Shown one piece after another: positions 1 to 60,525 of a stretch of DNA of 64,000 nt. Source of the stretch: Escherichia coli 042 (GTDB taxonomy: Bacteria > Pseudomonadota > Gammaproteobacteria > Enterobacterales > Enterobacteriaceae); assembly GCF_000027125.1 (NCBI RefSeq), contig NC_017626.1, one strand, 5' to 3'. Position 1 is the stretch's first letter. Each line of letters starts with the position of its first letter. The notes under the pieces were generated by a model. It did no database searches. It was given only the letters and a program-made list of their open reading frames with translations, and had not been told where the DNA came from. The position numbers and the translations under genes are program-made.

Positions 1-775
1 CCGGAATTCATCAATCCACGCTTCGTCAATACGCTGTTCGATGGTTTCTGTTCGCTGCTCGCTTACCTCGCTATAATTCTGTACCGGCACAGGATTGATG
101 ATTTTTTCCTGTGGCTCTTCCAGTTCGTCCGGAGTATACACGCCCAGGATGACGTCAGGACAATAAAGGCGAGCCCAGTATTTCAACGCCAGATAGGCGA
201 GCTGTTGTTTCGGGTTTGAGGTCCATAAAGGAGAATTACGCGTAATCACGCTGGAAAGAAACACCGGTTCTCCCCAGGTAATCTCACTTTCACCGCGAAG
301 AACTGCACCAACTCGAACTGATAGACCATACTCATCTTCACTGGTCCAACATGGGATCGTTTCTTTTTTCTCATAGATTCCGCCTCCTTTGGCCGTTTTC
401 TTAACGGTCTCCACTCGGGTGCGAGAGCATTTCTCCCAGTCTCCCTCGTACTTGTAATGGAAGCGGCCTACAATTGCACTTGAGCTAGAGATCACAGCGT
501 TAACCAGTTGTGCTTCATAACCCAGAACTCCGTTTACCAGGTGTGTTTTCTGAGCCACAGCGTAGGGGTTCATGCCCCATTGCATGGCTTGCATGATGAT
601 TGCCATGCAGTCGGCAGGATTTCCGCGAAGGTGATCGGGAACTGTGACGGTGGCCTGTGACATCAACCTGGCTACTGCCTGAAGTTGCGTCAACGCCTGA
701 ACGTTAAAAATAGTGTTACTGGCAGAAATGGTATTTGGTGTCTGCTCTGTCGTGATGATATTGGTATTTTGCATG
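1..775 (-). CDS. Phage single-strand annealing/recombination protein, N-terminal part only (gene continues past window start)
   Basis: Hand translation of minus strand from ATG at 775 (MQNTNIITTEQ...) stays open to position 1; GGAG RBS; starts 13 nt after recE stop, the position recT occupies in Rac. Sequence does not resemble Rac RecT as I recall it, so family is uncertain. Confidence 0.5.
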
Positions 776-788
776 GTCAGGTTCTCCA

Positions 789-3700
789 TTAAGCCAGATG
801 CAGTGCTTCAAGACGACGAAGATCAAAGTCGTTTAATTCGTCGGTATAACTTTCGGTAATCGGTGCTGGCCAGTTGTTTGTCTCCAGGGCTTCGTTTATC
901 TGGCGTAGCGTCCGGCGATATTCCTGTCGACCAAGTTCCAGGAGTTCCTGCGAGGCTTCCACGACAGCCACCCAGTGATAGCCAGCATCTTTGTTGACGA
1001 AGATCCAGAAAAATTTTTCCAGGTTTGCCACATCGCAATACATTGCGGCGCTGAGGTGATAATCACGCTCAATAATTTCACGGTGCAGGCGATCTTTAAG
1101 TCGTTCCTGCCGCACATAACCGAGGCTGACTGACTTCACGTCGGCGCAAATGCTTTCGTATGGCAGCCGGATTTCGATATCAGGACGGACCCTGATTTCC
1201 AGCCCGGTTTCTTCATCAAACCCGAAATAGCTGATTTCAGATTTGCGATCCGGGTGGTTGAGTAGCCTTGCCGCATCAGTATTGTTTTGCAGTGCCGCGT
1301 GAATATTTTTTGCCTGTTCATACATATCCGGACTGATAAACGTTTTCCCGGCGTTTTCTTCTTGCTGGCGTTTTTGCCAGTCCTCCAGTGTCACCAGTTC
1401 CGGGCGAATTTTCCGTGCGATTTCGGTTAATTGCTCTTTCGTGCCACTGATGTTGTAAGGCAAAGATTTAGCACGTTCTTTTTTTGCCAGTTCTGGGTCT
1501 ACAGTTTCAATTTGATCCAGAAGTTGCTCCCGTGCTCCACTGGTTTTCAACAGAGGAGGGAGGCTTGCGTTGTATTCTTTAATACAGGCTTTCATTGCTG
1601 ATGCTGTGTGTTTTTCCCCCTCAGGGATACGCCGAAATTCCACCGGAAGCGAACCGTAAAGGATGCCTGTTTCTTCGGCCCCAGCACTTACAGACAGTGG
1701 CTGTATAAGAGTGCTGTTGTAGCTTTCGATCCACTCTTTCATCTGCTCTGGTGTCATCAGTGCTGGCAGACTGGCATTGTGTTTTTTAATGATGGCGATC
1801 AGTTCGTTAGAAGTAGTAACCACATATTCAGGAACCGGTACCGGAATGGCATATTCATCAGCGAATTTATCCGTTTCCAGAACATAGCTGTGAATGATCC
1901 TCCCACGCAGCAGTGCATCACTTTCCTCATTCGGAATAGTTCCGGCAATGTGCCGCCCGTGGTAATACATCAGGCTGATACGGGCATCCTTCAGCATCGT
2001 GCTGCTTATTCCGTTGGCGGAGTGATAAACCTCGTTCGGGAGGTTTTCATAGCGGCCTGGCTCGAAATATGACGGCCACATGATTTCAGTTGCTACAGGA
2101 GCTGACGCTTCACCAGTTTGATCACTGCAATCACGATGCGGATCGCTGCCAGCATTCTCATTGTGCGGATGTTCAGCGCCTTCCATTTCCACCGGATCTT
2201 TTTCCTTAGCTTCAACCTGATTCTCTTCATCGAATGTTTCCTGGTATGTTGCGTCGCCCATCACCGCGCCACAGTCAGGGCAGTTACTGCCGCCGGTCTG
2301 ACCGCAGGCGGCGCAGACTTTTTCCGGTTCCTGTTGCGCTTCTGGTTCATTTTGTCGCGAATTTTGGCCGTTTTGTTCCGATTTTCGGTCGTTCTGTTCC
2401 GTTTTTGGCTGATGCTGGTACACAGAATCGCGGGTCTGGATCCCCTTAACCCATTTCGGATCATTCGGGTCGCTAATCCCTTCAACAAATTCTCCGCGAT
2501 AGGCAGCCAGTAATTTGTCTGCATCAACAGAATTTACCTGTGACTGAGCATCCAGCGGCTGCGTGTCCTGATGATGTTCAGTTGCATCCGGTTCCACTGT
2601 TTCAGCCGTTGCCTGTTCATCTGCCATTGCGCCAGATGGTTGCGGTTTTTCTTCATCATTCTGTTTTCCCTCCTCTGTTACACGCTGCGGCATCGGGGCA
2701 GAGGAGCGACCGCAGGCAATATCCACGATTTCCGGATCAGGGTTGGCATGATCGGTTTCAGTCAGTACTTTGTTCAGATATTCTGTGACGTGCGCGGGGA
2801 TGACCTCGATCCCAATTGGTGCTTCTTTCACGGACGCAACCACGATGGCGCGAGAATAATCCAGCCCGCCAGGCATGGTGATGAATTTGTCGCGGAAAAC
2901 AGAAAAGGGCGGTTTATTTTCAGCGATAATTTCCTCAATGCGTTTAGCGTGTGCCGGATGAAGGTTATAGATGTCCACGTCCATTGAACGGGCCAGTACG
3001 CCAGTGGCTACGTCGCGCGCCAGTGACGTAAGATCGTGGACGAAACCTTCGCCGCGATCGGTGAGGTTCCCGCCGCCAGCATTAGCACCGGAAGCCGTGC
3101 GAGTGATGCGTGAAACACGATTACCCTTCATCCACTCTTTTGTCAGCAGTCCTCGATCGGTGTAGTCAGCGTTCAGGTATACTTCGAAAAAAGCAGTTAA
3201 CAGTCCCAAGTCTGAATTACCAGGATTAGGGAAAACTTTGTCAGTGTCACGAACCAGTTTGTGGAGATCGCGAATTTCCAGCGGGTCGAGCAGGCTGGTT
3301 TTGTGGGAAACAGCCAGGGCAGTAACAGCCGGTAGTTCTTCAGCCCGTGCAATGTGTAATGCCTGGAGTTCGCCGCGTGAAACGTGCGTTACCGGTTTTT
3401 CGCTGCCGTGTTGAGCAAGCCAACGAATGGGCAGTTCCTGGCCAGAAATTGGGAGTAGCATATTCTCCTCAATCTCAGTCATGTCTTCGCCGTTGACGTT
3501 GGTATTGCCTTGATAGTGAGCGTTGTCTGGTGCTGCTCCCGGTTTTAGTTCCCATGTCATGGAGTCTTTGCTGAGTTGATAGCGTTCACTCCAGGTAAAA
3601 TCGATCTCACCTTCAGCGGGCAGGTCATTAACGACAGGAAAATTCGTGGCAACAGCTTTAAAATAGCTGCTCAGTTTTTTACCTGACTTAACGATCTGGT

Positions 3701-3812
3701 AGTCCAGAGTGGCACAGGTCGATTCAAAATCGTCACTTGCCCACAGGACGACGTCAGGTTCACCGGATGATTTTTTCGCTTTCCGTAACAGGAAGAGTGG
3801 TTTTGTGCTCAT
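789..3812 (-). CDS. recE: Exonuclease VIII (RecE-like), 1007 aa
   Basis: Long ORF; C-terminal region has RecE-type nuclease-domain character (e.g. [10 protein letters not shown]) as I recall it; synteny with racC/ydaE/kilR. Longer than K-12 RecE (866 aa). Confidence 0.8.
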
Positions 3813-3913
3813 TGTTTTTTAACCTCAACTCAGATTAAAATTCGTTTTGTTCAGTGAATGATCTTGCCGGATACACACTGTTCATAGCCTGCGCCATACG
3901 CAGGCTATTTCTT

Positions 3914-4189
3914 TCAGATTTCACCTTTTAATTTCATTGCAATCAGAGTTGCCAGAAATCCGGCTTTTTTTTCTGCGGGCAGATTCTTTCCGATATGCAC
4001 TAGGCTCATTTTTTTGACACCTTCGTGAAGTGTTTTAACGTTGCCTGATGGACCGTCGATATCAACTACAGTGAATGGGGTTTCTTTATTTTCTGTTTTA
4101 ATCACGTAGCCAATACGCTTTCCTTCCAGATTAACTTCGTGAACAATGTCATCAGTAGTTACAACAGTGGCTTCATAACTGGTAATCAT
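3914..4189 (-). CDS. racC: Rac prophage protein RacC (91 aa from internal Met MITSYEA)
   Basis: ORF translation matches RacC as recalled; position between recE and ydaE. Confidence 0.8.
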   Translation of the reverse strand: MITSYEATVVTTDDIVHEVNLEGKRIGYVIKTENKETPFTVVDIDGPSGNVKTLHEGVKKMSLVHIGKNLPAEKKAGFLATLIAMKLKGEI

Positions 4190-4263
4190 GTTTTTCTTCT
4201 TAATTAAGGTTGAGCGAATCCCTGCCATTGCTGGCATAAATTCAGTTTCGCATAGTCAGTTAA

Positions 4264-4434
4264 TTAAAGTTCGTGTGCCATCTGGTCTTTTTCGGCACAT
4301 ATTTCGCTACAATATTTTTTCATTTCCGTCGTTGGGATAACTCCACGCATGAAATGAAGTGGTCTTTTAATGCTTTTGCTTTCTTTAACTTCTTTATCGC
4401 AAAGGTGGTAAGCACATTTTATTTTCTTAGTCAT
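4264..4434 (-). CDS. ydaE: Small zinc-binding protein YdaE (56 aa)
   Basis: Not in ORF track (<60 aa); hand translation [16 protein letters not shown]...YCSEICAEKDQMAHEL, GGAG RBS, 56 aa as in K-12 ydaE. Confidence 0.75.
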   Translation of the reverse strand: MTKKIKCAYHLCDKEVKESKSIKRPLHFMRGVIPTTEMKKYCSEICAEKDQMAHEL

Positions 4435-4655
4435 CACCATGACTCCGCCTTTACAGGTAAACCATCACGACCGAGGAAGACTTTAATCATGCAGTCAGTA
4501 ATGCATGTTTTTGTGGTCAGGTTACGAATATAAAGCTTTCGCTTTTTAATATTGTTTGCCGAGGCAATATATGTCCGGCCGTTATGAAGAACATAATCAC
4601 CAGGAGTCACACACTGACGAGGTATTTCATCAGTTCCGAAGTGATGAGCAATCAT
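4434..4655 (-). CDS. kilR: Cell-division inhibitor KilR (73 aa)
   Basis: ORF translation [21 protein letters not shown]...; Rac synteny. Confidence 0.8.
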
Positions 4656-5085
4656 AATTATCTCCATTTTCACAAATGAACTTTGTTGATGCGGTGCCTG
4701 GTGCCTCCAGGTGACGTTAACCAGTTAACAATTAACGCCGGATAATCCACCCATAACACTGATGCTTTTAACTGTTCCGCGTGCGCTTAGCCGCATTCAC
4801 CGCATCACAAAATTCACTTTAAAAAGGGCGGACATCAGCCGAACTTCAAGAAAAAACTGATGCCGCCAAGACTACACACAGCAATGTCGTTATTTACAAC
4901 CGGAGGCGCACTCCCACCATTTAAATTTAACAGACAAGACCGACTCTTTATGGATATCGGAAATGCGCCTTCGTGTTGCGCCCAGTTTTATTTCACCACC
5001 TCCGGGCTTCGGTGGTCTCGGCTATACCCCTACAGCGAGAGCTTGTGTTAACATTTCAATACCCTTACAGTTGAGAGTTATTGAT

Positions 5086-5574: not shown

Positions 5575-5726
5575 CTTACTGTGTGCTTCTCCAACCATCG
5601 GCGCGCACCAGTTTCGGTTTTAAATGTTTTGCTTTTTGTATACGTCATCGCGGTGAACGTACCGTCCTGGTTGGGAAACACGCCACACACTATGGATTCG
5701 TTGTTGCCGAGGTCGATTTTTTGCAT
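5571..5726 (-). CDS. ydaF: Rac prophage small protein YdaF (51 aa)
   Basis: Hand translation MQKIDLGNNESIVCGVFPNQDG...; GAGGG RBS; size matches ydaF. Confidence 0.7.
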   Translation of the reverse strand: MQKIDLGNNESIVCGVFPNQDGTFTAMTYTKSKTFKTETGARRWLEKHTVS

Positions 5727-5737
5727 TTTGGGAACCC

Positions 5738-5872
5738 TCACATCTTGTTGTTACGGATAGAGGCTTCTGCCTGCCAGAGATCCCAGTCGTTGCTGCGTAG
5801 AGCCTGTACAGCCTGGCTGTAAGTGATGCCGCAACAATCCATCAAATACTGAACTACTTCGTAATGCACCAT
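5738..5872 (-). CDS. ydaG: Rac prophage small protein YdaG (44 aa)
   Basis: Hand translation MVHYEVVQYLMDCCGITYSQAVQALRSNDWDLWQAEASIRNNKM; size and position match ydaG. Confidence 0.65.
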   Translation of the reverse strand: MVHYEVVQYLMDCCGITYSQAVQALRSNDWDLWQAEASIRNNKM

Positions 5873-6043
5873 CTTATCTCTCCCCTTAACGCCGGGTGGC
5901 GGAACTAACTGCTGCACTGCAAAATTTGAATCCCGCCGTCATGTTCATACGCCTCGGGCTGGCTACTTAACCCCTGACCACTGCCTGGTAACTCGAAGTA
6001 TTGCCCTGCGTTCTGTGGGGCGGGGTGGGTTGGTAGGTATATG

Positions 6044-6085
6044 ATGTACTTTGTGTTCATTGTTGTAAAGTACTTTAAGTACATT
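6044..6085. promoter_or_regulatory. Candidate left operator: inverted ATGTACT/AGTACAT repeats
   Basis: atgtact at 6044-6050 and agtacat at 6078-6084, plus aagtac direct repeat; same heptamer recurs twice between racR and ydaS. Confidence 0.35.
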
Positions 6086-6159
6086 TTGTGTGTAAAAAAA
6101 TGAGATGGGATAAAGTGAAGCACAAACCCGGAGGGGGACGCTACCGGATTTATGCTGGT

Positions 6160-6579
6160 TTAAGAGGCTTTTTGTTTTTTCTTTCGTGCTAACTCTTCGT
6201 AAATTGCATTGTACTTCTGTTTTTTCTCCTCAAGAGTTTTTAAAAGTTCATCTGTCTCACTGTCAGGGAGCTCGTCCAGAAGGTCAATGATGATTTTTTG
6301 TCTTGGATTTAACTCCTGATAGAAACGTACCTGTCCACTTTCTTCTGTATCCTCTCCCAAAAGATAGGTTGGTGTTGTTCCAATGAGTGTTGCTAATTCC
6401 CTTAATTTCTCTCGGCGAGGAATTGTTTCGCCATTAAACCATTTGCTAACCGCTTTTGGTGTTAATTTCATTCGACGGGCAATTTCTGCCTGCCTTCCAT
6501 GTTGTTCATAACCAGCGTTTTCACAGGCTAGCGCAAGCCTACTGGCGAACTCTTTACGCGCTTTATCTTCATGAACCAT
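6160..6579 (-). CDS. racR: Prophage repressor, HTH XRE family (RacR-like), 139 aa
   Basis: HTH motif (QAEIARRMKLTPKAVSKW); divergent from ydaS/ydaT as in Rac. Confidence 0.75.
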   Translation of the reverse strand: MVHEDKARKEFASRLALACENAGYEQHGRQAEIARRMKLTPKAVSKWFNGETIPRREKLRELATLIGTTPTYLLGEDTEESGQVRFYQELNPRQKIIIDLLDELPDSETDELLKTLEEKKQKYNAIYEELARKKKQKAS

Positions 6580-6603
6580 AAGTTCAATGATATTCGCTCT
6601 TGA

Positions 6604-6634
6604 ATGTACTGTCAGTTCTGTTATAGCATGTACT
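6604..6634. promoter_or_regulatory. Candidate right operator/divergent promoter region (ATGTACT x2)
   Basis: atgtact at 6604-6610 and 6628-6634 in the 80-bp racR-ydaS intergenic region. Confidence 0.35.
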
Positions 6635-6658
6635 CAAAGTTCACATTGTGAGGGTGAT

Positions 6659-6913
6659 ATGAACCAGAAAACACTTGAAGATGTAATCAAAACTGTTCGC
6701 GTTTCTGTTGTGGCCGACGTTTGTGGTGTCAGCCAAAGAGCAATCTACAAATGGATGGATAACGGAAAATTGCCTCGCACAGAATATACCGGCGAAACAA
6801 ATTACGCTGAAAAAATCGCTCATGCATCAAACGGATTATTTTCTGCCGATGCAATTTTAACTATTGGCAGAAATAAAACTACTACGAAAAAGCTGATGGG
6901 AGTTGATTCATGA
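6659..6913 (+). CDS. ydaS: Cro-like HTH protein YdaS
   Basis: Translation MNQKTLEDVIKTVRVSVVADVCGVSQRAIYKW; position right of repressor. Start uncertain. Confidence 0.7.
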   Translation: MNQKTLEDVIKTVRVSVVADVCGVSQRAIYKWMDNGKLPRTEYTGETNYAEKIAHASNGLFSADAILTIGRNKTTTKKLMGVDS

Positions 6914-43972: not shown

Positions 43973-44323
43973 AAAAAGGTGAGCTGTATATGCAACGGAG
44001 GAAGAAACCCCGTTGCTGGAAGCCTGGAAAAAGTATCGGATGCTGCTGAACCGTGTTGATACATCAACTGCACCTGATATTGAGTGGCCTACGAACCCTG
44101 TCAGGGAGTAATCATTGGGATTATGCCGCAGAAACGTTGTATGCAATAACGTTCTGCGGTTGGCTGATGCACTTTCGAGAGTGCATGTATTGAATTATTT
44201 CCAGCTATTATCGATTTTACGTATTTTTTGCATGAGAGAATTTGTACCTCCTCCCAACAACGACCTTCCATGACTTTCCGGACTTCTGTGGGCCAGCGGA
44301 CGATGCTGCCCTCGGATGTTGTG

Positions 44324-45181
44324 CTAATTGGGTGATGACAAATCCTGTGTATGGGTGTTTCCCTTTGTGCGTGCGTTGATGCTGGTAACGGTGAACGTCA
44401 TGATGAACACAACCGCGAATAAGACGACAATCGTCGGAGCTGGTGCACTGTCGATAAAAAAGGACAACCAGACACCAGTCATTGACACTATTACCGATAT
44501 GCCAATCGCCAGTAGGAGCGCAATATGAAAGCGTTGTGTCAGGAGTACCGCAATGGCGCCAGGCGCAATGAGCAGAGAAATGGAGAGAATGATACCTACC
44601 GCTTTCAGCGTCGCCACAATGGTCAGAGAGACCATGCACAGCAGCCCATAATGCAGACATCTCGTATGCAAACCGCTTACCTGCGCCTGTTGATAATCAA
44701 AGCTGAACAGCAAAAAATCCCGCCATTTTACGCTAATAACAAGTGTAACCAACCCGGCAATAATCACCGTCTGGATTATATCGCCGATGGTTACCCCGAG
44801 CATGTCGCCGAAAAGAATATGGTCAAGATGTACGTCTGGTTTGACTGCAATATACAAGATCAGACCTGCGGCAAACATGCCAGAAAAAACAATCCCCATC
44901 ACTGTATCTTGCTTGATTCGGCTGTTGTCTTTCAGGTATCCCGTCGCCACCGCGCAGAATACTCCGGCGACGAATGCCCCTGTAGCCAGAGGTAACCCCA
45001 GAATCCAGGCAAGCACGATGCCAGGAAAAACCGCATGACTCATCGCGTCACCCATCAGTGCCCAACCTTTCAGGACCAGAAAGACCGACAGCAGCGCACA
45101 GGGTATGGAAACTACCAGTGAAATCAGCAGTGCGTGACTCATAAAGGTGAACTGCAGTGGCTCCAGTAATAATGCCATCAT
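44324..45181 (-). CDS. sitD: Mn/Fe ABC transporter permease SitD
   Basis: Polytopic permease; operon order sitABCD. Confidence 0.9.
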   Translation of the reverse strand: MMALLLEPLQFTFMSHALLISLVVSIPCALLSVFLVLKGWALMGDAMSHAVFPGIVLAWILGLPLATGAFVAGVFCAVATGYLKDNSRIKQDTVMGIVFSGMFAAGLILYIAVKPDVHLDHILFGDMLGVTIGDIIQTVIIAGLVTLVISVKWRDFLLFSFDYQQAQVSGLHTRCLHYGLLCMVSLTIVATLKAVGIILSISLLIAPGAIAVLLTQRFHIALLLAIGISVIVSMTGVWLSFFIDSAPAPTIVVLFAVVFIMTFTVTSINARTKGNTHTQDLSSPN

Positions 45182-46035
45182 GAGCGATCCTCCAGCGCTT
45201 TATGCGCACGCCGACGATTTGCCAAAAGCCCATGGGTGGGCGCAAATACAAATGCTAAAAGAAACAGCAGTGTCTGCGCCACCACGATGATTCCACCTGT
45301 CGCGCCGTCCAGAAAGTAACTGACCCACGCGCCGAGGAAACTGGTTACACTGCCAATAGTTACAGCAATTATGAGCAGGCGGGGAAAATGATCGGTTAAC
45401 AACCATGCTGTTGCACCGGGAGTCACCACCAGACAGATCACCAGAAAGGCACCAACCGTTTGCAGCGCCGCAACGGTCGAAACCGACAGCAGGGTGAAGA
45501 AGAGGATTTTTAATCTGCCCGGATGCAATCCAATAGCACGAGCGTGATTCTCGTCGAAAAAGGTCACCATAAGATCTTTCCATTTGAAAAAAAGCACGAT
45601 GATCGAGAGAATGCCAATGATAGTGAGTTGCAGGATATCCGCCGGATCGATTGCCAGAATATTGCCCAGGACGATGGTCTGAATGTTCACGGATGTCGGG
45701 TTCAATGACACCATAAACAGCCCCAGGCCAAAAAAGGAGGAGAAGATCAGGCCGATGATGGCATCTTCTTTTAAGCGAGTGCGTTGGTTAAGAAACAGCA
45801 TGCTGCCCGCTGCCAGTCCGCCGGAAAAGAAGGCTCCCAGAGAAAACGGAAGCCCCAGCATATATGCCCCCGCAACACCCGGGACAATAGAGTGCGACAG
45901 CGCATCGCCAATCAGCGACCAGCCTTTTAGCATCAGATAGCATGACAGGAAAGCGCAGAGACCGCCGACCATCGCCGAGACCCACATCGCATTGAGCATA
46001 TATTCATAGCTGAAGGGTTCCAGTAGCACGTTCAT
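45178..46035 (-). CDS. sitC: Mn/Fe ABC transporter permease SitC
   Basis: Polytopic permease paralogous to SitD. Confidence 0.9.
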
Positions 46036-46859
46036 CTTGCTTCCCCCTGCACCGCTGACGGTCGATGTGCCACAAAAGGGTGTTCATCGTCAGTAATAAT
46101 GCTTTCTTCCGAGCCGTTAAGTGTGACATGGCGCAGTACGCCGCTAAAAGCCAGCTCCAGGTTCTCGGCTGTAAAAGTGGTGTCTGTCGGCCCGCTTGCC
46201 AGGACGGTGCCTTTGACCATGACCGTATAATCGCAAAATGTCGTGACTGAGCCGAGATTGTGCGTTGAGACAAGCATCGTCTTGCCTTCCGCGCGTAACT
46301 CCCTCAACAGGCTGATGATTTTCGCTTCGGTTTTCACATCAACGCCGGTAAAAGGTTCATCCAGCAGGATCACATCACCCTGCTGTGCAATCGCTCTCGC
46401 CAGAAAGACGCGTTTCTTTTGTCCACCGGAAAGCTCGCCGATTTGTCGATGGCGAAAATCCACCATATCGACACGTTCCAGCGCATCGGTGACAATCTGA
46501 CGATCCCTCTTTTTGGCTATACGCAACATACCCATGTGCCCATAGCGGCCCATCATCACCACATCTTCCACTAGTACAGGAAATGACCAGTCAACCTCTT
46601 CTGACTGAGGGACGTAGGCAACCAGGTTTTTCTGTAGCGCCTGTCGCGTGGGAATACCCAGAACAGATATCTTTCCGCTGGTCAGACGGACAAATCCCAT
46701 AATCGCTTTAAACAACGTCGATTTTCCGGAACCGTTTACCCCAACCAGAGCGGCAATAGATCCACTTGGTACTGTGAAGGATGCATCGCGCAGTGCTGTG
46801 TGCCCGTTACGCCAGGTGACAGTAACATCATTAACGACAATGCCCGCAGATTGCATCAT
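46032..46859 (-). CDS. sitB: Mn/Fe ABC transporter ATP-binding protein SitB
   Basis: Walker [13 protein letters not shown] signature LSGGQKKR, Walker B ILLDEP. Confidence 0.9.
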
Positions 46860-47773
46860 TATTTCTCCCTTTTCCCGGCTTTAATTCCCTGTACCAGCGT
46901 ACTGGTAGTAACCTTCAGAAGGTCGATATACGTAGGTACCGGGCCGTTTTCTGTGCTCAGGGAATCGACATAGAGTACACCGCCGTAGTGCGCGCCGGTT
47001 TCACGCGCAACCTGACGCGCTGGTTTATCGGAAATCGTACTCTCGCTAAAGACTGCCGGGATATGATTTTTCTTCACCATATCAACAACCTTACGTACCT
47101 GCTGCGGCGTGCCTTGTTGATCGGCATTAATCGGCCACAGATAAAGCTCTTTTAGCCCCAAATCGCGTGCGAGATAAGAAAAAGCCCCTTCACTGGTGAC
47201 CATCCATCGCTGATTCTCAGGGAGTTCAGCAATCTGCTTACGCAGGGGGGCAAGGGTTTGGGTAATCTTGGCTTTATAAGTATCGGCATTACGTTGGTAG
47301 GTTTGTGCATTTGCCGGATCGTATTTTATCAACGCATCACGAATATTATCGACATAAATCAGAGCATTATCTGGCGACATCCAGGCATGGGGGTTAGGTT
47401 TGCCCTCATAGGGTCCTTCGGTGATCCCTACTGGCGTCACACCCGAAGAGACAATTACTTCTGGAACCCCATTGAGATGTTGGTAAAAGCGTTGGAACCA
47501 CAATTCCAGATTCATACCATTGGCGAGAATCAGTTGTGCCCCCTGCGCACGTTTAATATCTCCAGGGGTAGGCTGATACTCATGAATTTCTGCACCAGGC
47601 TTGGTTATGGATGAGACTTCTGCAGCATCTCCAGCCACGTTTTTGGCCATATCCGCGATGATGGTAAATGTTGTAATGACCTTGAATTTTTCAGTTGCAC
47701 TTGCCTGAAATGCGATCGAGCAGGTGAGGGCGAGGCACCCCAAGAGCATGGTTACTTTTTTTATTGAGTGCAT
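46859..47773 (-). CDS. sitA: Periplasmic metal-binding protein SitA
   Basis: Signal peptide; cluster-9 substrate-binding protein family. Confidence 0.9.
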
Positions 47774-47805
47774 AATTTAGTACCTATAGTGAGCAAAATT
47801 AGAAA

Positions 47806-47827
47806 AAACATAGCAACAGCTATGTTT
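47806..47827. promoter_or_regulatory. MntR box (perfect palindrome AAACATAGC-AACA-GCTATGTTT)
   Basis: Palindrome 33-54 bp upstream of sitA start; matches E. coli MntR operator consensus. Confidence 0.75.
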
Positions 47828-47845
47828 TATAGCATAAGCCATGCA

Positions 47846-47866
47846 AAATGAAAATGATTATCATTA
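47846..47866. promoter_or_regulatory. Fur box-like site
   Basis: aatgaaaatgattatcattag resembles GATAATGATAATCATTATC. Confidence 0.6.
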
Positions 47867-48325
47867 GCGGTTGTGGGCCCAACACAGGGATTAGGTTGTT
47901 TCCTGCTGGCGATGTGGTATTGAGGAAAAAATTAGGGCAGCTATTAGGCTTTGAAATGACTTTATGAGGAGAATTGTTGATGGCAAAAATGGGGCAAAGC
48001 GCTGCAAAAGGGGCAAAAAAGGGGCAAAAAAAGAGTGGGTTATCGTAGCTTATTGTTGTCGCTGATGATGTTTAACACATTGAAAAATAAGTAAAATACT
48101 TATGAGTCAGAGAGTTGTGATTTTTGCCCTTACTTGTTCAGATTGTATTGTTCTTTCTTACTAATTTCTTGATTTTGCGACATTTAAAAGCGACTCAATT
48201 CGTTATATGGCATCAGAAGAGTATGCGTCATGCCGGAAAGCCCAGCATAAGAAATCTGATATAAAAACTGTGGCGTGTATGGTACGGATTAGAGGGGAAA
48301 ATGTCAGCACATTTGCGAAATGAAT

Positions 48326-48351
48326 CAAAAAGCCCGCAGCAATGTGCGGGC
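48326..48351 (-). terminator. uspF intrinsic terminator
   Basis: gcccgca-loop-tgcgggc with T5 on minus strand. Confidence 0.6.
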
Positions 48352-48358
48352 GTTAGTG

Positions 48359-48874
<516 letters not shown>

Positions 48875-48901
48875 TTAGATCAAAGGAGGAAGAATAAGCA
48901 G

Positions 48902-48926
48902 AAAAAGCCCGCCATAACAGCGGGCA
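48902..48926 (-). terminator. ompN intrinsic terminator
   Basis: gcccgc-tgttat-ggcggg then T5 on minus strand. Confidence 0.55.
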
Positions 48927-48933
48927 GGAGGAT

Positions 48934-50067
48934 TTAGAACTGATAAACCAGACCTAAAGCGACAATATCATCGGTAGAGATGCCGTTGGCAGCGTAGAAG
49001 CTGTCATCTTCATCCAACAGGTTGATTTTATAGTCAACATAGGTGGACATGTTTTTATTGAAATAGTAAGTCGCGCCAACATCGGCGTATTTAACCAGAT
49101 CTTTATCATCAACACCTGCCGGGTTGTCTGCACCACCGGCAGCGTGCAGGTCACGGCCTTTAGACATCAGGAAAGAGACTGCCGGACGCAGACCAAAATC
49201 AAACTGGTACTGTGCAGTAACTTCAAAGTTCTGGGTTTTGTTTGCAACAGCATAATCGCTGTCGCCAAACGGGGTCATATTACGCGTTTCTGAATACATG
49301 GTTGCCAGGTAAATATTGTTAGCATCGTATTTTAGCCCAGCAGTCCACGCGTCTGCTTTATCACCACCCGCCGCAGTATGGTTAACCTGGTCATTGGTGC
49401 GGTCAGAAGAGGTGTATGCCGCACCAGCGCTAAAGCCCATGCCTAAATCATATGTTGTGGAAAGACCCCAGCCGTCACCGTTTTCATGGCGAACATCACG
49501 TCCGTTGTTGGTGCCTTCCTGACCATTACTGGCACCTTCGTTGTTACCTTGATACTGCACCGCGAAGTTCAGACCATTTACCAGACCGAAGAAATCAGTA
49601 TTACGATAAGTCGCGACGCCATTGGCACGACCAGTCATAAAGTTGTCTGCATTGGTATAAGAGTCACCGCCAAATTCAGGCAGCATATCGGTCCAGCCTT
49701 CGATGTCGTACATTACGCCATAATTACGTCCGTAATCGAAAGAACCGTAATCTGCAAATTTCAATCCGGCAAATGCCAGACGGGTCCATGACTGGTTTTT
49801 TGAGGATTCAGTGTTGTTTGCCTGAATATTGTATTCCCATTGACCGTAGCCAGTGAGTTGATCGTTAATTTGCGTTTCGCCTTTAAAACCCAGACGCGCA
49901 TAGCTCTGGTCGCCATCTTTCGCTGAATTATCAGAAAAATAATGCAGGCCATCAACTTTGCCATACAGATCTAATTTGTTGCCGTCTTTATTATAAACTT
50001 CGGCTGCATGTGCAGCACCTGCGGCGAGCAGGGCAGGAATTAAAAGTGCCAGTACTTTGCTTTTCAT
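48934..50067 (-). CDS. ompN: Outer membrane porin OmpN
   Basis: Signal peptide; OmpC-family porin ending in F. Confidence 0.9.
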
Positions 50068-50294
50068 TGAATAAATCCTTTAGTTATTTTATTTGCCTTT
50101 TATCCCCATTTCGGGGAGTGAAAACATCCTAAAGGAGATGTTCAGTTAGCCGATAAATATCATTTGTTACGCCTTAAGTAAAACCTTAATCAAATAATTC
50201 TTCTGAAATGATAATAAGTCTGGTGAATGTATTGGAGATAATACATACAAAATAAAAATTATACTTTTAATTTGCTATACGTTATTCTGCGCGG

Positions 50295-50403
50295 GTTATA
50301 TGCCTTTATTGTCACAGATTTTATTTTCTGTTGGGCCATTGCATTGCCACTGATTTTCCAACATATAAAAAGACAAGCCCGAACAGTCGTTCGGGCTTTT
50401 TTT
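50295..50403 (+). ncRNA. micC: MicC small regulatory RNA
   Basis: Sequence GTTATATGCCTTTATTGTCACAG... ending in gcccgaac...gttcgggc + T-run; between ompN and ydbK. Confidence 0.85.
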
Positions 50404-50432
50404 TAGAATTGGATAATTCTTATCCAGAGCAT

Positions 50433-53400
50433 TTAATCGGTGTTGCTTTTTTCCGCTTTTCCGGCCATTTGTGCCAGGAAGTCATAGCGTTTTTGCAAAT
50501 CAGCTGCAGCATCTTTCCATAACTGTTCTGCCACTTCTGGCTGCTGCGAATTCAGACGACGGAAACGTTGCTCATGCAGTAACGTTTCTTCCAGTGCTTC
50601 TGACGGCGGGCGTGAATCCAGTGCCAGCGGCAGTTTGCCTTCATCGGCTCGACGTGGATCGAAGCGATATAGCGGCCAGAAGCCGGTGGCAGTGAGTTGG
50701 CGCATCTGGTCGTGACTGAGTGCCAGATCGTAACCATGCTCTTCACACGGGCTATAAGCGATGATCAGCGATGGTCCCGGATACGCTTCTGCTTCCTGAA
50801 TCGCTTTCACTGTCTGGTTCAGCTGTGCACCAAGAGAAATTTGCGCCACATAAACATGACCGTACATCATCATACTGACGCCAAGATCTTTACGCGCTTT
50901 ACGTTTGCCATGCTCGCCAAACTTAGTTACTGCACCCAGCGGTGTCGCTTTCGACGCCTGACCACCGGTGTTGGAATAGCATTGCGTATCCAGCACCAGA
51001 ATGTTGACGTTTTCCGTCAAACTCAATACATGATCCAGACCGCCAAAGCCGATATCGTAAGCCCAGCCGTCGCCACCAATCAGCCAGATTGATTTTTCCA
51101 CCAGTGCATCTGCGTCACGTAGCAGTTCATGTGCTTCGGCAACATCTTTGAGTTGCTGGCGTAAAGCTGCAACCTGTTCACGACGAACCTCTGGCGTGGC
51201 GTCTGATTTCAACGCAGTCAGTAATTCCGCCGGGATTTTATCGGCAAATTGATCCAGCAGACGCAGCACGCGGACACGGTGTTGATCGACCGTCAGGCGG
51301 AAACCAAGGCCAAATTCGGCGTTATCTTCAAACAGCGAGTTCGCCCATGCCGGTCCACGACCGTTGGCATCGGTAGTATACGGTGTAGAGGGCAGGTTAC
51401 CGCCATAAATTGAAGAACATCCGGTGGCGTTAGCGATCAACATTCGGTCGCCATAGAGCTGAGTCAGCAATTTAATATACGGCGTCTCGCCACAACCGGA
51501 GCAAGCACCTGAATATTCAAACAGCGGTGTAATCAGCTGCGATGTACGAATATCAATACGTTCCAGTTTGCTACGGTCGATTTCTGGGAGGTTGAGGAAG
51601 AAATCGTAATTGATTTTCTCTTCTTCGACATGTTCCAGGCGCGACATCATATTGATGGCTTTGATCTCTGGATTCTGACGGTCTTTCGCCGGGCAAACTT
51701 CGACGCACAGGTTACAGCCGGTGCAATCTTCCGGTGCCACCTGCAAGACATATTTCTGCCCGCGCATATCACGCGATTTCACATCCAGCGAATGCAGGCT
51801 GGCAGGGGCGTTTTCCATCGCTTCAGGCGGTACCACTTTTGCGCGAATAGCGGAGTGTGGGCAAGCAGCGACGCAGTGGTTACATTGGGTACAGAGTTCC
51901 TCTTTCCAGATGGGGATCTCTTCGGCGATATTGCGTTTTTCCCAGCGCGTAGTGCCCATCGGCCAGGTGCCGTCTGGCGGCAGCGCCGAAACGGGGAGGG
52001 CATCACCAAGCCCGGCGAGCATCGCCGCGGTTACGGTTTTCACGAAATCAGGGGCGGCATCGGAAACCACTGGCGGTCGATTGGCGCTGTGCGGATTTAC
52101 TGGTTGCAGCGGAACTTCTTCTACGGATTCACGTGCCAGCGCCAGAGCCTGCCAGTTGCGTTCCACCAGATCCTGACCTTTGCTACTGTAACTTTTGGCA
52201 ATCGCACCCTGCAATTCTGCGAGGGCGCTATCGCCAGGCAGAATTTGCGTAAGATGGAAAAAAGCCATCTGCATGACGGTATTAATACGGGCTGCCAGGC
52301 CACATTCGCGGGCGATTTTCGCCGCGTTAATCACATAGAAGCGCGCTTTTTTCTGGTTTAACACGGCCTGAACTTCCTGCGGCAAGCGCGACCATACTTC
52401 ATCTGCGCTGTACGGCGTGTTGAGCAGGAAAATGCCGCCAGGTTTTAAACGTTCAGCCATCTGATATTTATCGATAAACTGCAACTGGTGGCAGCCAACA
52501 AAATCAGCCTGGGAAATGAGATAAGCGGAACGAATCGGCTGCTCACTCACGCGAAGGTGAGAAACCGTCAGGCCGCCCGCCTTTTTGGAGTCGTAAACAA
52601 AATAGCCCTGTGCGTACCACGGCGTGGAATTACCGATAATCTTGATATTGTTTTTGGTCGCGGAAACGCTGCCATCACTACCAAGGCCATAAAACAAGGC
52701 TTCAAGTTTCGCCGAGTTTGGCAGGGTGTTTTCCGGCAACGGTAGTGACAGATTGGTCACATCATCATAAATACCAACCGTAAAGCGCGCTTTCGGTTTA
52801 GCCGCGTTGAGCTCGGCAAATACCGCCAGTACACAGTCCGGGCCAAATTCTTTGGATGAAAGACCATAGCGCCCACCAATGACACGGGGCAGGGTTTCGC
52901 GCTCGCCATTATTAAAGGCTTCTGCCAGTGCAGTCATCACATCCAGATAGAGCGGTTCTGCCTGGGCACCGGGTTCTTTGGTTCTGTCCAGTACCGCCAC
53001 GCTGCGTACGGATCCCGGTAGAGCTTGTAGCAAGTGTTTGGCGGAGAAGGGACGGTACAGGCGAACTTTCAGCACGCCGACTTTTTCGCCACGGGTTAGC
53101 AATTCATCAACCACTTCTTCACAGGTGCCAATGGCAGAGCCCATCAGGATAATCACCCGTTCCGCTTGCGGATGCCCGTAATACTCAAACGGCTGATACT
53201 GACGACCTGTCGCGGCAGCGAAATCATTCATCGCCTGTTCAACATGGTCGTAAACTGCGTTGTACCACGGGTTGGTGGCTTCACGTGACTGGAAGTAGGT
53301 GTCCGGGTTAGCCGAGGTACCGCGAATCACCGGATGCTCCGGATTCAGCGCGCGGGCGCGATGAGCATCAATTTCGGCCTGCGGCATCAGTTCCAGAATC

Positions 53401-53957
53401 GTGTCATCGGCCAGCGGGACAATTTTATTGATTTCGTGGGACGTGCGGAAACCATCAAAGAAATGAATAAATGGAACGCGGCTTTTCAGCGTCGCGATGT
53501 GCGAAATGAGAGCAAAGTCTTGCGCTTCCTGGACGTTAGCCGCACACAACATCGCGCAACCCGTCTGGCGCACCGCCATAACGTCGGAATGATCGCCAAA
53601 AATAGAGAGTGCATGTGTGGCAACGGTACGTGCCGCTACATGCAGGACAAATGGCGTCAGTTCGCCTGCCAGTTTGTACAGCGTCGGGATCATCAGCAAC
53701 AAACCCTGCGATGACGTAAACGATGTTGAAAGGGCACCCGTCTGCAAAGCGCCATGCACGGTAGCGATAGCCCCCGCTTCCGACTGCATTTCAACCACGC
53801 GTGGTGTGTCTCCCCAAACGTTCTTCAAGCCGTTTCCGGCCCATGCATCAGCCTGTTCTGCCATCGTGGAACTGGGGGTAATAGGGTAGATGGCGATAAC
53901 TTCACTGGTGCGAAACGCCACCGAAGCAACCGCGCCATTACCGTCAATAGTAATCAT
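50433..53957 (-). CDS. ydbK: Pyruvate:flavodoxin oxidoreductase YdbK (1174 aa)
   Basis: Size; two 4Fe-4S ferredoxin motifs (CTQCNHCVAACP, CTGCNLCVEVCP). Confidence 0.95.
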   Translation of the reverse strand: MITIDGNGAVASVAFRTSEVIAIYPITPSSTMAEQADAWAGNGLKNVWGDTPRVVEMQSEAGAIATVHGALQTGALSTSFTSSQGLLLMIPTLYKLAGELTPFVLHVAARTVATHALSIFGDHSDVMAVRQTGCAMLCAANVQEAQDFALISHIATLKSRVPFIHFFDGFRTSHEINKIVPLADDTILELMPQAEIDAHRARALNPEHPVIRGTSANPDTYFQSREATNPWYNAVYDHVEQAMNDFAAATGRQYQPFEYYGHPQAERVIILMGSAIGTCEEVVDELLTRGEKVGVLKVRLYRPFSAKHLLQALPGSVRSVAVLDRTKEPGAQAEPLYLDVMTALAEAFNNGERETLPRVIGGRYGLSSKEFGPDCVLAVFAELNAAKPKARFTVGIYDDVTNLSLPLPENTLPNSAKLEALFYGLGSDGSVSATKNNIKIIGNSTPWYAQGYFVYDSKKAGGLTVSHLRVSEQPIRSAYLISQADFVGCHQLQFIDKYQMAERLKPGGIFLLNTPYSADEVWSRLPQEVQAVLNQKKARFYVINAAKIARECGLAARINTVMQMAFFHLTQILPGDSALAELQGAIAKSYSSKGQDLVERNWQALALARESVEEVPLQPVNPHSANRPPVVSDAAPDFVKTVTAAMLAGLGDALPVSALPPDGTWPMGTTRWEKRNIAEEIPIWKEELCTQCNHCVAACPHSAIRAKVVPPEAMENAPASLHSLDVKSRDMRGQKYVLQVAPEDCTGCNLCVEVCPAKDRQNPEIKAINMMSRLEHVEEEKINYDFFLNLPEIDRSKLERIDIRTSQLITPLFEYSGACSGCGETPYIKLLTQLYGDRMLIANATGCSSIYGGNLPSTPYTTDANGRGPAWANSLFEDNAEFGLGFRLTVDQHRVRVLRLLDQFADKIPAELLTALKSDATPEVRREQVAALRQQLKDVAEAHELLRDADALVEKSIWLIGGDGWAYDIGFGGLDHVLSLTENVNILVLDTQCYSNTGGQASKATPLGAVTKFGEHGKRKARKDLGVSMMMYGHVYVAQISLGAQLNQTVKAIQEAEAYPGPSLIIAYSPCEEHGYDLALSHDQMRQLTATGFWPLYRFDPRRADEGKLPLALDSRPPSEALEETLLHEQRFRRLNSQQPEVAEQLWKDAAADLQKRYDFLAQMAGKAEKSNTD

Positions 53958-54230
53958 ATGACACCCTTACATTGCGCAAATGAGGGGCGCACGAAATTGC
54001 TGCGCGCCCAGTAGTTATCTTTCAATTTTAGCAAATGGCTTTCTTCTGCATTTTCGCTTTTGTGTCCCCCACATCAGCGTAATGAATGTTTTGATCAAAC
54101 AGAGGGCAAAAAAATAGCCATAAAAAAGTAAAAATGCGGGGCAACGCGCAGGACAGCTCTCGACGTCGCCCTCTGTGCTGCCTATTATTTATGGCGGTGT
54201 CGTTTGGCTTGAAGATCAGAGGAAGAAAAG

Positions 54231-54497
54231 ATGCGAGCAGCGTTTTGGGTAGGGTGTGCCGCTTTATTGTTGTCGGCGTGTAGTAGTGAACCTGTTCAGC
54301 AGGCGACTGCGGCGCACGTAGCGCCAGGTTTAAAAGCGTCGATGTCCAGTAGTGGAGAAGCAAATTGTGCAATGATCGGCGGTTCGCTTTCTGTTGCCCG
54401 TCAACTGGATGGTACGGCGATTGGGATGTGTGCATTACCCAACGGCAAACGCTGTAGTGAACAGTCACTTGCCGCCGGGAGCTGTGGCAGCTATTAA
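54231..54497 (+). CDS. ydbJ: DUF333 lipoprotein YdbJ (88 aa)
   Basis: Lipobox LLSAC; size. Confidence 0.8.
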   Translation: MRAAFWVGCAALLLSACSSEPVQQATAAHVAPGLKASMSSSGEANCAMIGGSLSVARQLDGTAIGMCALPNGKRCSEQSLAAGSCGSY

Positions 54498-54916
54498 TTC
54501 ATTAAATCCGCCAGCTTATAAGTTAATGTCTGTTTCGCGGTCGCCAGCGTTAACTGGTTCGCGGTCAGATCCACTTGTGCACCTTCTTTCAGCATTTCGC
54601 TAATGGTGTTATCGAGTTCATTAAGCTGCGGGTTAGCGCACATCATACGGGTCATTGCCAGCCCTTTGGCTGTTAGTTCACCATTAGACAGTTTGCCTTC
54701 ACCGCTAAAGCGGTTACACATGCTGCCGGAAATCATCATCTTTTCACCAAAGCTGATTTCTGGCGGATTTTTATCGCTGGTCACGGGCTTACCGTTTACG
54801 CTTTCCAGCACAAAGCGATGACGCTGTAGCTGTTCTGGGGTTACAGCAATTTTGTCATTACTTACACATCCCGCCATCAGCAGGCTTAGCGCAACAAACG
54901 CGGCTACTTTCTTCAT
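54494..54916 (-). CDS. hslJ: Heat-shock lipoprotein HslJ
   Basis: Lipobox LMAGC; synteny. Confidence 0.85.
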   Translation of the reverse strand: MKKVAAFVALSLLMAGCVSNDKIAVTPEQLQRHRFVLESVNGKPVTSDKNPPEISFGEKMMISGSMCNRFSGEGKLSNGELTAKGLAMTRMMCANPQLNELDNTISEMLKEGAQVDLTANQLTLATAKQTLTYKLADLMN

Positions 54917-55026
54917 TGTGGTTCTCAATTACAGTTTCTGACTCAGGACTATTTTAAGAATAGAGGATGAAAGGTCATTGGGGATTATCTGAATCAGCTC
55001 CCCTGGAATGCAGGGGAGCGGCAAGA

Positions 55027-56016
55027 TTAAACCAGTTCGTTCGGGCAGGTTTCGCCTTTTTCCAGATTGCTTAAGTTTTGCAGCGTAGTCTGAGAAATAC
55101 TGGTCAGTGCTTCTGCTGTCAGGAATGCCTGGTGCCCGGTAAACAGCACGTTGTGGCAGGCAGACAGACGACGGAATACGTCATCCTGGATCACGTCGTT
55201 GGATTTGTCTTCAAAGAACAGATCGCGTTCGTTCTCATACACGTCCATACCCAACGAACCAATTTTCTGATTTTTCAGCGCTTCAATTGCCGCCTGAGAA
55301 TCAATCAATGCACCGCGACTGGTATTGACGATCATCACGCCATTTTTCATCTGATCGAAGGCGGCTTCGTTCAACAGATGGTAGTTTTCCGGTGTCAGCG
55401 GGCAGTGCAGAGAGATAACGTCTGATTCAGAGAACAGGGTTGGCAGATCGACATACTCCACACCGAGTTCCAGTGCCGCCGCACTTGGATACGGATCGAA
55501 CGCCAGCAGACGCATACCAAAACCTTTCAGAATGCGCAGCATCGCCACACCGATTTTACCGGTACCGATAACGCCTGCCGTTTTGCCATACATAGTAAAG
55601 CCGGTCAGACCTTCCAGAGAGAAGTTGGCGTCACGAGTACGCTGATACGCGCGATGAATACGGCGGTTCAGCGTCATCATCATACCGATGGCGTGTTCAG
55701 CAACGGCTTCTGGATCATAGGCTGGAACACGGACTACTTTCAGCCCCAGTTCTTTTGCCGCGTCAAGGTCGACGTTATTAAAACCGGCACAGCGCAGGGC
55801 GATATATTTAACGCCGTGCTTTTTCAGCTCTTCCAGCACCGGGCGGCTGCCGTCATCGTTTACGAAAATACATACCGCTTCGCAGCCATTGGCGGTTTTA
55901 GCGGTTTTTTCCGTCAGCAGAAAGTCAAAAAATTCCAGCTCAAAGCCAAAGGACTCGTTCACCTGTTGCAGGTACTTCTTGTCGTACTGTTTTGTGCTAT
56001 AAACGGCGAGTTTCAT
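55027..56016 (-). CDS. ldhA: Fermentative D-lactate dehydrogenase
   Basis: 329 aa; NAD-binding GVIGTGKIG; 2-hydroxyacid dehydrogenase family. Confidence 0.95.
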   Translation of the reverse strand: MKLAVYSTKQYDKKYLQQVNESFGFELEFFDFLLTEKTAKTANGCEAVCIFVNDDGSRPVLEELKKHGVKYIALRCAGFNNVDLDAAKELGLKVVRVPAYDPEAVAEHAIGMMMTLNRRIHRAYQRTRDANFSLEGLTGFTMYGKTAGVIGTGKIGVAMLRILKGFGMRLLAFDPYPSAAALELGVEYVDLPTLFSESDVISLHCPLTPENYHLLNEAAFDQMKNGVMIVNTSRGALIDSQAAIEALKNQKIGSLGMDVYENERDLFFEDKSNDVIQDDVFRRLSACHNVLFTGHQAFLTAEALTSISQTTLQNLSNLEKGETCPNELV

Positions 56017-56223
56017 AAGACTTTCTCCAGTGATGTTGAATCACATTTAAGCTACTAAAAATATTTTACAAAATTTCAAATATAATTGAAAGCTATGGCG
56101 ATATTGAAAAATTCATCAACAACTATGCTTAGTGTAGGCGCAACCTTCAACTGAACGGTTAAACATGCCACAATACCCGTATTGAATGCTTAATTTTTCG
56201 CTAAATCAGGATATTAACTACCC

Positions 56224-58863: not shown

Positions 58864-59045
58864 AAATTTTACTGGCTGCGTTGACGTCATCTTTTATGCT
58901 GGTTGGCTGTACGCCTCGCATTGAAGTCGCTGCACCTAAGGAACCGATCACTATCAATATGAACGTTAAAATTGAGCATGAGATCATCATCAAGGCAGAC
59001 AAAGATGTCGAAGAGCTGCTTGAGACTCGTAGCGATCTTTTCTGA
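58860..59045 (+). CDS. ynbE: Lipoprotein YnbE (61 aa)
   Basis: Lipobox LVGC; overlaps ydbH stop. Confidence 0.8.
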   Translation: MKILLAALTSSFMLVGCTPRIEVAAPKEPITINMNVKIEHEIIIKADKDVEELLETRSDLF

Positions 59046-59049
59046 GGCG

Positions 59050-59379
59050 ATGATGAAGAAAACATTACTTCTTTGTGCGTTTCTTGTTGGGCTGGTAAGC
59101 AGCAATGTAATGGCATTGACTCTGGATGAAGCCAGAACTCAGGGGCGGGTAGGGGAAACATTTTATGGTTATCTGGTTGCGCTGAAAACAGATGCTGAAA
59201 CAGAGAAATTAGTAAACGACATTAATGCCGAACGTAAAGCGAGTTACCAACAACTGGCAAAGCAAAATAATGTCTCGGTAGATGATATCGCGAAACTCGC
59301 CGGGCAAAAGCTCGTAGCTCGGGCTAAACCGGGGGAATATGTACAAGGGATAAACGGTAAATGGGTGCGAAAATTTTAA
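59050..59379 (+). CDS. ydbL: Periplasmic protein YdbL
   Basis: Signal peptide; third gene of ydbH-ynbE-ydbL. Confidence 0.8.
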   Translation: MMKKTLLLCAFLVGLVSSNVMALTLDEARTQGRVGETFYGYLVALKTDAETEKLVNDINAERKASYQQLAKQNNVSVDDIAKLAGQKLVARAKPGEYVQGINGKWVRKF

Positions 59380-59513
59380 TAGCAAAACCGCAATATCGGG
59401 ATAACGCTACAGGAGAAGGCGATTATTCTATTTTCCGGAAACAAGGTGAATATTCAAAAATTCCTGTCAAATTGCCTTTCGCCCTGAAAAATGCATAGTC
59501 AAATATCTGTTTT

Positions 59514-59552
59514 AACTAATTCGCGTTGCTGTACATGCAACGCGAATTAGTT
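59514..59552. terminator. 39-bp palindrome (bidirectional terminator-like)
   Basis: aactaattcgcgttgc-tgtacat-gcaacgcgaattagtt. Confidence 0.45.
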
Positions 59553-59784
59553 AGCGGAATTTACGTCGATACTCGCCTGGCGTCATCCCAAAGCGTTGAT
59601 TAAATACCGTTGAAAAATGACTCTGGTCGGAAAATCCCCAATGAAAGCCAATGCCTGCCAGTTTTTCATCATCTGCGGCATGGCGAATCGCATCTGCACA
59701 AAAATCGAGACGACGGTTACGGATATATTGCGCGACTACCAAACCTTTATCGGCAAACTTTATCAGCGCGTAGCGCCTGCTGCT
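59551..59784 (-). pseudogene. feaR: feaR 3' remnant (AraC-family C-terminal HTH only)
   Basis: Frame encodes ...GFHWGFSDQSHFSTVFNQRFGMTPGEYRRKFR; stop at 59785-59787 truncates it to about 77 codons. Confidence 0.6.
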
Positions 59785-59787
59785 TTA

Positions 59788-59910
59788 GCGTTCGTTAGTG
59801 AAAAAGGTGAAACCTCGGTCGGTGAACTGCCTGCGCCGGGAAGCCTGTATTTTCAACGTTTTGGCGGCTTGAATATTGAACAGGACGCGTTATGCCAATT
59901 TATCAGATAG
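59788..59910 (+). pseudogene. paaX: Probable paaX 3' remnant
   Basis: Open frame running into and overlapping the paaY start; identity inferred from synteny only. Confidence 0.35.
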
Positions 59911-60482: not shown

Positions 60483-60525
60483 CGTCCTGATGCTGGACGT
60501 TCTAATTTTTAGCATGTGATACACA

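Follow-up and report, generated by a model that had tools for sequence, protein, structure and literature searches.

At one end of the window analysed here, a stretch of 64,000 nucleotides from Escherichia coli 042 (contig NC_017626.1), lies the recET gene pair of what is very probably a Rac-like lambdoid prophage, with a chimeric RecE: its N-terminal part is of the Rac/K-12 type, while its nuclease domain is of the Gifsy type and was swapped in jointly with a Gifsy-type annealing protein (SSAP). The gene pair itself is a known, standard RecET-type two-component recombinase; dozens of RefSeq E. coli genomes and a deposited phage genome carry it with the correct annotation, and genetic work has characterised its Gifsy relatives. 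It is a clear-cut natural case of Rec-module exchange, with the breakpoint within recE where the N-terminal region meets the nuclease domain.

The open reading frame is uninterrupted over 1007 codons and, judged by its profile matches, encodes RecE (exonuclease VIII), which would be expected to act as a processive 5'-3' double-stranded DNA exonuclease and to form a tetrameric toroid. The protein matched the NCBIfam exodeoxyribonuclease VIII equivalog NF007259 with 1412.4 bits (cutoff 1269), phrog_607 over residues 3-1006 and the Pfam family Exonuc_VIII (PF06630) at residues 2-178 (E = 5.5e-95), and near its C-terminus the PD-(D/E)XK family DUF3799 (PF12684) with 55 bits (cutoff 26). The N-terminal region of RecE is described as being of unknown function and genetically dispensable (PMC11611040). 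It is followed by an acidic linker rich in Q and N (D+E 21.8%, Q+N 14.8%), and relatives with other linker lengths have RecE proteins of 1024 and 1048 aa. Coordinates of all features are compiled in Table 1.

Table 1 Features of the recET module in window coordinates, with the evidence for each.
Feature	Position	Strand	Evidence or remark
recE CDS, 1007 aa	789..3812	-	ATG start; stop codon 789-791; ORF list
Rac/K-12-type N-terminal part, RecE aa 1-573	2094..3812	-	blastn and protein identity to K-12; Exonuc_VIII
Acidic Q/N-rich low-complexity linker, RecE aa 361-576	2085..2732	-	composition; length varies between alleles
Zinc-ribbon-like Cys cluster, RecE aa 500-515	2268..2315	-	two CxxC pairs; common to K-12 RecE
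Gifsy-type PD-(D/E)XK nuclease domain, RecE aa 574-1007	792..2093	-	DUF3799, homology, AF2 model
H641, upstream of catalytic core	1888-1890	-	invariant alignment column
Helical insertion of ~140 aa, RecE aa ~667-807	1392..1814	-	putative array of SAP/HeH-like helix-extended loop-helix units
Catalytic core E859...D878...D891-x-K893	1134..1238	-	invariant alignment columns
RecT-family SSAP gene (Gifsy type), 5' 258 codons	1..774	-	translation; Pfam RecT; runs off window edge

A first-pass annotation of the locus had described RecE as about 140 aa longer than its K-12 counterpart, which is correct (1007 versus 866 aa, a difference of 141), and had by implication tied the extra length to the N-terminus and its cysteine cluster. 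The latter does not hold. K-12 RecE has 17 aa more in its N-terminal part, which rules out an N-terminal extension, whereas the nuclease domain of the RecE studied here, with about 434-435 aa compared to 276 aa in K-12, is 158 aa longer. Alignment to K-12 RecE divides the protein accordingly: residues 1-573, including the cysteine cluster, align with 92.4% identity (BLASTP: 96.1% for residues 1-431, 80.7% for residues 432-573), the linker lacking 24 aa and containing 7 additional ones, while from residue ~574 on the two proteins diverge and identity falls to 32.7%. The DNA follows the same pattern, with blastn matches to K-12 of 97% over window positions 4299-2521 and 82% over 2535-2094, and no match beyond. 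The far end of the exchange was located in the full-length locus of E. coli RM11911 (L002), a relative 97% identical to the window, in which homology to K-12 returns 8 nt past the recT stop and a cassette of 2417 bp takes the place of 1640 bp in K-12. Since K-12 homology ends inside recE and resumes past the recT stop, one cassette of nuclease domain and SSAP was exchanged; on this sequence evidence, the exchanged unit is the RecE nuclease domain plus the whole SSAP gene. The earlier proposal of a swapped annealing-protein module is thus right about the swap, as homology ends at about position 2094, and wrong in confining it to the SSAP, as the nuclease domain was swapped jointly. A single recombination event would have replaced the cassette, which begins at recE codon ~573/590 and ends shortly beyond the recT stop. 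Lying inside recE, where the dispensable N-terminal region gives way to the nuclease domain, the breakpoint fits an exchange of nuclease and annealase as a cognate pair. Both were most likely exchanged together because they need a specific mutual interaction, and we infer a partner specificity between nuclease and SSAP.

What kind of protein is the partner? Its gene is located immediately downstream of recE and co-oriented with it, as in Gifsy-2, Rac-SA53 and RM11911, and starts either at ATG 774, leaving a gap of 14 nt after recE, or at ATG 788, which overlaps the recE stop (TAATG). In relatives with the full-length gene (RM11911 and locus L003) it encodes 362 aa. The partner had been judged not to resemble Rac RecT, and BLASTP indeed yielded no alignment with K-12 RecT. 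An hhalign comparison of a Gifsy-type RecT profile with K-12 RecT gave a probability of 0.1, a value from a 3-sequence profile that is too shallow to inform, and searching the PDB with the sequence of the full-length protein returned nothing at E ≤ 1. The further step of placing the partner outside the RecT family was reversed by profile search: the fragment in the window matched Pfam RecT (PF03837) with 128.5 bits (cutoff 24; E = 3e-37, profile positions 2-192 of 198), and it is 61% identical to Gifsy-2 RecT when compared as the full-length protein over its full length. The assignment to the family is based on the Pfam HMM, with which a full-length relative scored 127.3 bits and K-12 RecT 188.9 bits (positions 1-187). 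In PHROGs, the partner matched phrog_561, a RecT-like ssDNA annealing protein, with E = 2e-120. As Pfam and PHROGs gave RecT-type matches only, and no match to any other SSAP family, a non-RecT SSAP was ruled out. Matching the RecT profile yet lacking BLASTP similarity to K-12 RecT, the partner belongs, by these searches, to the RecT family as a divergent subtype. It thus shares the Pfam family with Rac RecT of K-12 and differs from it in lacking pairwise similarity, in being ~93 aa longer and in its distinct C-terminal domain.

The origin of the cassette type is indicated by the Gifsy-1 and Gifsy-2 recET genes of Salmonella Typhimurium (Gifsy-2: STM1009/STM1008), which share the gene order, the long nuclease domain with its insertion (52-60% identity) and a RecT similarity that includes the C-terminal domain. 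Gifsy-1 RecE matched the nuclease domain with ~52% identity at 99% coverage, and proteins of Citrobacter, Klebsiella and Ewingella did so with ~52% identity at 98-99% coverage; Gifsy-2 RecE has the same long domain. Unlike the RecE studied here, Gifsy RecE has an only distantly similar N-terminal part (41% identity overall) without the cysteine cluster, and the Gifsy prophages differ in backbone and integration site. Once derepressed by mutation, recET of Gifsy-1 and Gifsy-2 reportedly suppresses recB recombination defects (PMC3121763), so that this type of cassette has genetic evidence of function; by analogy, the suppression lends indirect support to ssDNA annealing or strand exchange by the partner. 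A survey of Rec modules in lambdoid phages, published in 2025, names Gifsy-1 as prototype of a nuclease plus SAP class; it describes sequence types as extensively shuffled and suggests that partner-interaction domains have been shuffled as well (PMC12315714).

In a sample of 5426 complete E. coli genomes, some part of window positions 1-3900 was matched in 4759, mostly the N-terminal part of RecE. The K-12 cassette, composed of nuclease domain and RecT, was whole in 1728 of the 1751 genomes matching it. The long nuclease domain was present in ~194 genomes, followed by the RecT allele of the window in 31 and, in 159, by another allele of Gifsy type, WP_001004423.1, which is characteristic of O157:H7 and O145. 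By these counts, the type of the nuclease and that of the SSAP are tightly linked. The two Gifsy-type RecT alleles are 64% identical overall, with nearly identical C-terminal ~110 residues; at the DNA level, their 3' 174 codons are 96% identical. In lambda, partner-specific contact between Exo and Beta is mediated by the C-terminal domain of the SSAP (PMC6393309). By analogy with this binding of lambda Exo by Red-beta, the conserved C-terminal domain of Gifsy-type RecT may be the element that contacts the nuclease.

The nuclease domain retains the residues expected of a working enzyme. H641, E859, D878, D891 and K893 were invariant in an alignment of 52 sequences and correspond to H652, E729, D748, D759 and K761 of K-12 RecE, with which the domain has the catalytic residues and the PD-(D/E)XK fold in common despite 33% identity and the helical insertion. 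An AF2 model of the domain reached a pLDDT of 94.5, and Foldseek returned the RecE nuclease structure 3H4R as top PDB match (E = 7.7e-10, TM 0.61 normalised on the target), while lambda Exo (3sm4) gave a weak fold match (E ~0.02). With lambda Red, the module shares the arrangement of a 5'-3' PD-(D/E)XK exonuclease beside an SSAP of the Rad52/RecT/Red-beta superfamily; lambda Exo differs as a 226-aa single-domain trimer without a large N-terminal region. No equivalent of Gam adjoins the module. Enzymatic activity of RecE is presumed here, and the mechanism would be that expected for any RecET/Red pair: the RecE nuclease domain would resect the 5' strand at a double-stranded DNA end, and the RecT-family protein would load on the resulting 3' overhang and anneal it to complementary ssDNA.

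The additional ~140 aa make up a helical insertion in the C-terminal nuclease domain which, as far as profile and structure comparisons go, is probably an array of SAP/HeH-like units. When the insertions of 24 homologues were searched against Pfam, SAP was matched by 14 (best E 7.8e-6), SAP_new25 by 6 and Thymopoietin/LEM by 2, and others matched the Ish1 HeH family. The insertion of the RecE under study matched only SAP_new25, below the cutoff (E 0.19). Its closest compact structural matches were SAP domains of DNA-binding proteins, a likeness to be read with the sub-threshold SAP evidence for this sequence. We propose that the insertion is probably an accessory element binding duplex DNA. 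A SAP domain in RecE was not found described in the searchable literature. Alternatively, the insertion might serve oligomerisation or partner docking, for example by recruiting the C-terminal domain of Gifsy-type RecT, rather than being a DNA-binding SAP array. It is always present where the long domain pairs with a Gifsy-type RecT, and these RecT proteins carry a helical C-terminal extension of ~110 aa, nearly invariant between the two alleles and missing from K-12 RecT (269 aa); the sub-threshold score of RecE's own insertion likewise suits a docking element. However, most homologous insertions match SAP and others LEM/Thymopoietin or Ish1 HeH, SAP domains from DNA-binding proteins are the best matches among compact structures, the copy number of the repeat units varies, which is typical of accessory nucleic-acid-binding repeats rather than of a specific docking surface, and the insertion also occurs in stand-alone nucleases of ~430 aa, whatever partners these may have. 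We thus consider a docking function rather unlikely and favour DNA binding by the insertion.

The Rac prophage of K-12 is cryptic, and its recET genes are silent unless activated by sbcA mutations. The genes described here might accordingly be a decaying remnant of a cryptic prophage, with recE and its partner no longer functional and the mosaicism mere neutral debris, the more so as some genomes contain IS-disrupted or partial copies of this recE (e.g. locus L005). Several observations make this improbable. The frame of 1007 codons is intact with all catalytic residues conserved, and the allele of the nuclease domain is conserved at 96-99% across the ~194 genomes. A long run of large plus-strand ORFs downstream in the window is consistent with a full-size prophage, and a near-identical module (98.5% identity), annotated as recE and recT, is found in the deposited complete genome of Escherichia phage Rac-SA53 (KU052037). 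Essentially the same module is carried by Rac-SA53 and by the Rac-like prophages of E. coli RM11911, STEC309 and others: recE and recT are 97-99% identical at the nucleotide level, bear the annotations exodeoxyribonuclease VIII and RecT family recombinase, and lie beside ralR, xis and int at ttcA. These modules differ from that of the window only in the length of the RecE linker, which gives RecE proteins of 1024 and 1048 aa compared to 1007 aa.

The cysteine cluster had been assigned to an acidic, low-complexity N-terminal region. Motif and acidic Q/N-rich stretch were both found, but the cluster (C500, C503, C511, C514) is situated in the middle of the protein, at residue 500 of 1007, and can be called N-terminal only relative to the nuclease domain. 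K-12 RecE contains the cluster as well (CNACGQTGGDNCPDCG, residues 517-532), which rules it out as a novelty of this allele. Arrangements of the type C-x2-C-x(5-12)-C-x2-C arose by chance in 7 of 200000 shuffles of the RecE protein. A 22-residue island, VCxxCGxxGGxxCPDCGAVxGDATY, is kept in the divergent homologues P0125 and P0141, in which the flanking linker cannot be aligned; conservation of the island between unalignable flanks argues that selection maintains it as a mini-module, plausibly of the zinc-knuckle or zinc-ribbon kind, which may bind metal. The match of RecE to an NCBIfam zinc-ribbon family was sub-threshold (E 0.098). Gifsy-2 RecE lacks the cluster, and of 44 long RecE-like representatives 43 lack it and one has it, so that, going by these alignments, it is neither particular to this allele nor general in RecE. 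A zinc motif in RecE was not found described in the searchable literature, where queries combining full-length RecE and zinc were dominated by matches to 'receptor'. That RecE gained a zinc-ribbon cluster by N-terminal extension and was paired with an SSAP outside the RecT family (e.g. of the Erf, Sak or Red-beta type) can practically be dismissed: the 141 additional residues, the presence of the cluster and the lack of similarity between partner and K-12 RecT in BLASTP and the shallow profile comparison would suit such an origin, but K-12 RecE has the cluster too, the added length lies in the nuclease domain behind a shortened N-terminal part, and the partner scores far above the Pfam RecT cutoff while matching no other SSAP family.

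Do the two small elements contribute to the function of the chimeric RecET? Tentatively, and with considerable doubt, we suggest that the SAP/HeH-like array, with its variable copy number, and the zinc-ribbon-like island, strongly conserved within a linker that otherwise evolves fast, are functional modules that bind DNA ends or the partner and tune end resection. Full-length RecE is needed for linear-linear recombination, a requirement that is known and unexplained. If the suggestion is true, the zinc-ribbon island might contribute to this requirement, and the Gifsy-type cassette, used as a recombineering tool, might behave unlike K-12 RecET. Both the SAP-like insertion and the cysteine island are minor uncharacterised elements of possible relevance to the engineering of RecET for recombineering and direct cloning.

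As regards the surroundings of the module, the prophage is of the same type as Rac of K-12. ORFs resembling RacC, YdaE and KilR were observed upstream of recE at positions 3914-4673 on the minus strand; K-12 Rac and RM11911 share this order. In RM11911, the module lies next to ralR, xis and int at ttcA.

The two Gifsy-type recT alleles of E. coli are mosaic in turn. This emerges from a comparison of the region left of window position 1 between two relative loci, the full-length locus L002 of E. coli RM11911 (recT at 5686-6774) and L004 (recT at 3936-4988). While the 3' 174 codons of the two alleles share 96% DNA identity, blastn gives no match for the central ~280 nt and the 5' part can be aligned at lower identity only. 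Such an uneven distribution of identity points to an additional recombination junction within recT.

For the RecT-family gene of the window, two start codons come into consideration, ATG at 788 (window 786-791) and ATG at 774 (772-774). The former shares bases with the recE stop codon (TAATG) and thus suggests translational coupling of both genes if it is the start; its equivalent is used in the record of Escherichia phage Rac-SA53 (protein MENLTMQNT...). ATG 774 is preceded by GGAG and was chosen by PGAP.

The nuclease-domain insertion of RecE (homologous to window 1392-1814) contains additional SAP/HeH-like units in RecE-like homologues such as P0158 and P0160. Proteins of this kind have lengths of 1127-1341 aa and carry duplicated 'KKPTLPxxGT..DL..R.KSFNP' and 'ELKEMIEE.N' units, so that the copy number of the array is variable.

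In some genomes, the recE allele of the window is split into two pseudogene fragments by an IS3-family insertion, as observed for the homologue in E. coli 99-3311 (locus L005); hence, a fraction of the population carries a recE/recT module in decay. A further match, to window 795-3842, was found in PP818812.1 (hit H27), deposited as Actinobacillus phage vB_Apl-pPE4 with A. pleuropneumoniae as host. Its recE shares 94% nucleotide identity with the Rac-like E. coli gene of the window. One would not expect this in a phage of Pasteurellaceae, and the host may have been misassigned or the sample contaminated.

Upstream of recE, the early-left operon contains three ORFs. The RacC-like ORF is longer at its N-terminus than K-12 RacC (91 aa), and the YdaE-like ORF is Cys-rich; YdaE of K-12 is annotated as a zinc-binding protein. 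A long series of large + strand ORFs spans window ~9000-43600 and thus suggests a full-size lambdoid prophage, not a 23-kb remnant as in K-12. It is followed by ORFs of mixed orientation (44300-64000).

ORFs outside the recE/recT module
Feature	Length (aa)	Window position	Strand	Region
RacC-like ORF	107	within 3914-4673	-	early-left operon
YdaE-like ORF	58	within 3914-4673	-	early-left operon
KilR-like ORF	79	within 3914-4673	-	early-left operon
ORF	1077	30187-33420	+	large-ORF series (example)
ORF	1131	35803-39198	+	large-ORF series (example)
ORF	1174	50433-53957		mixed orientation
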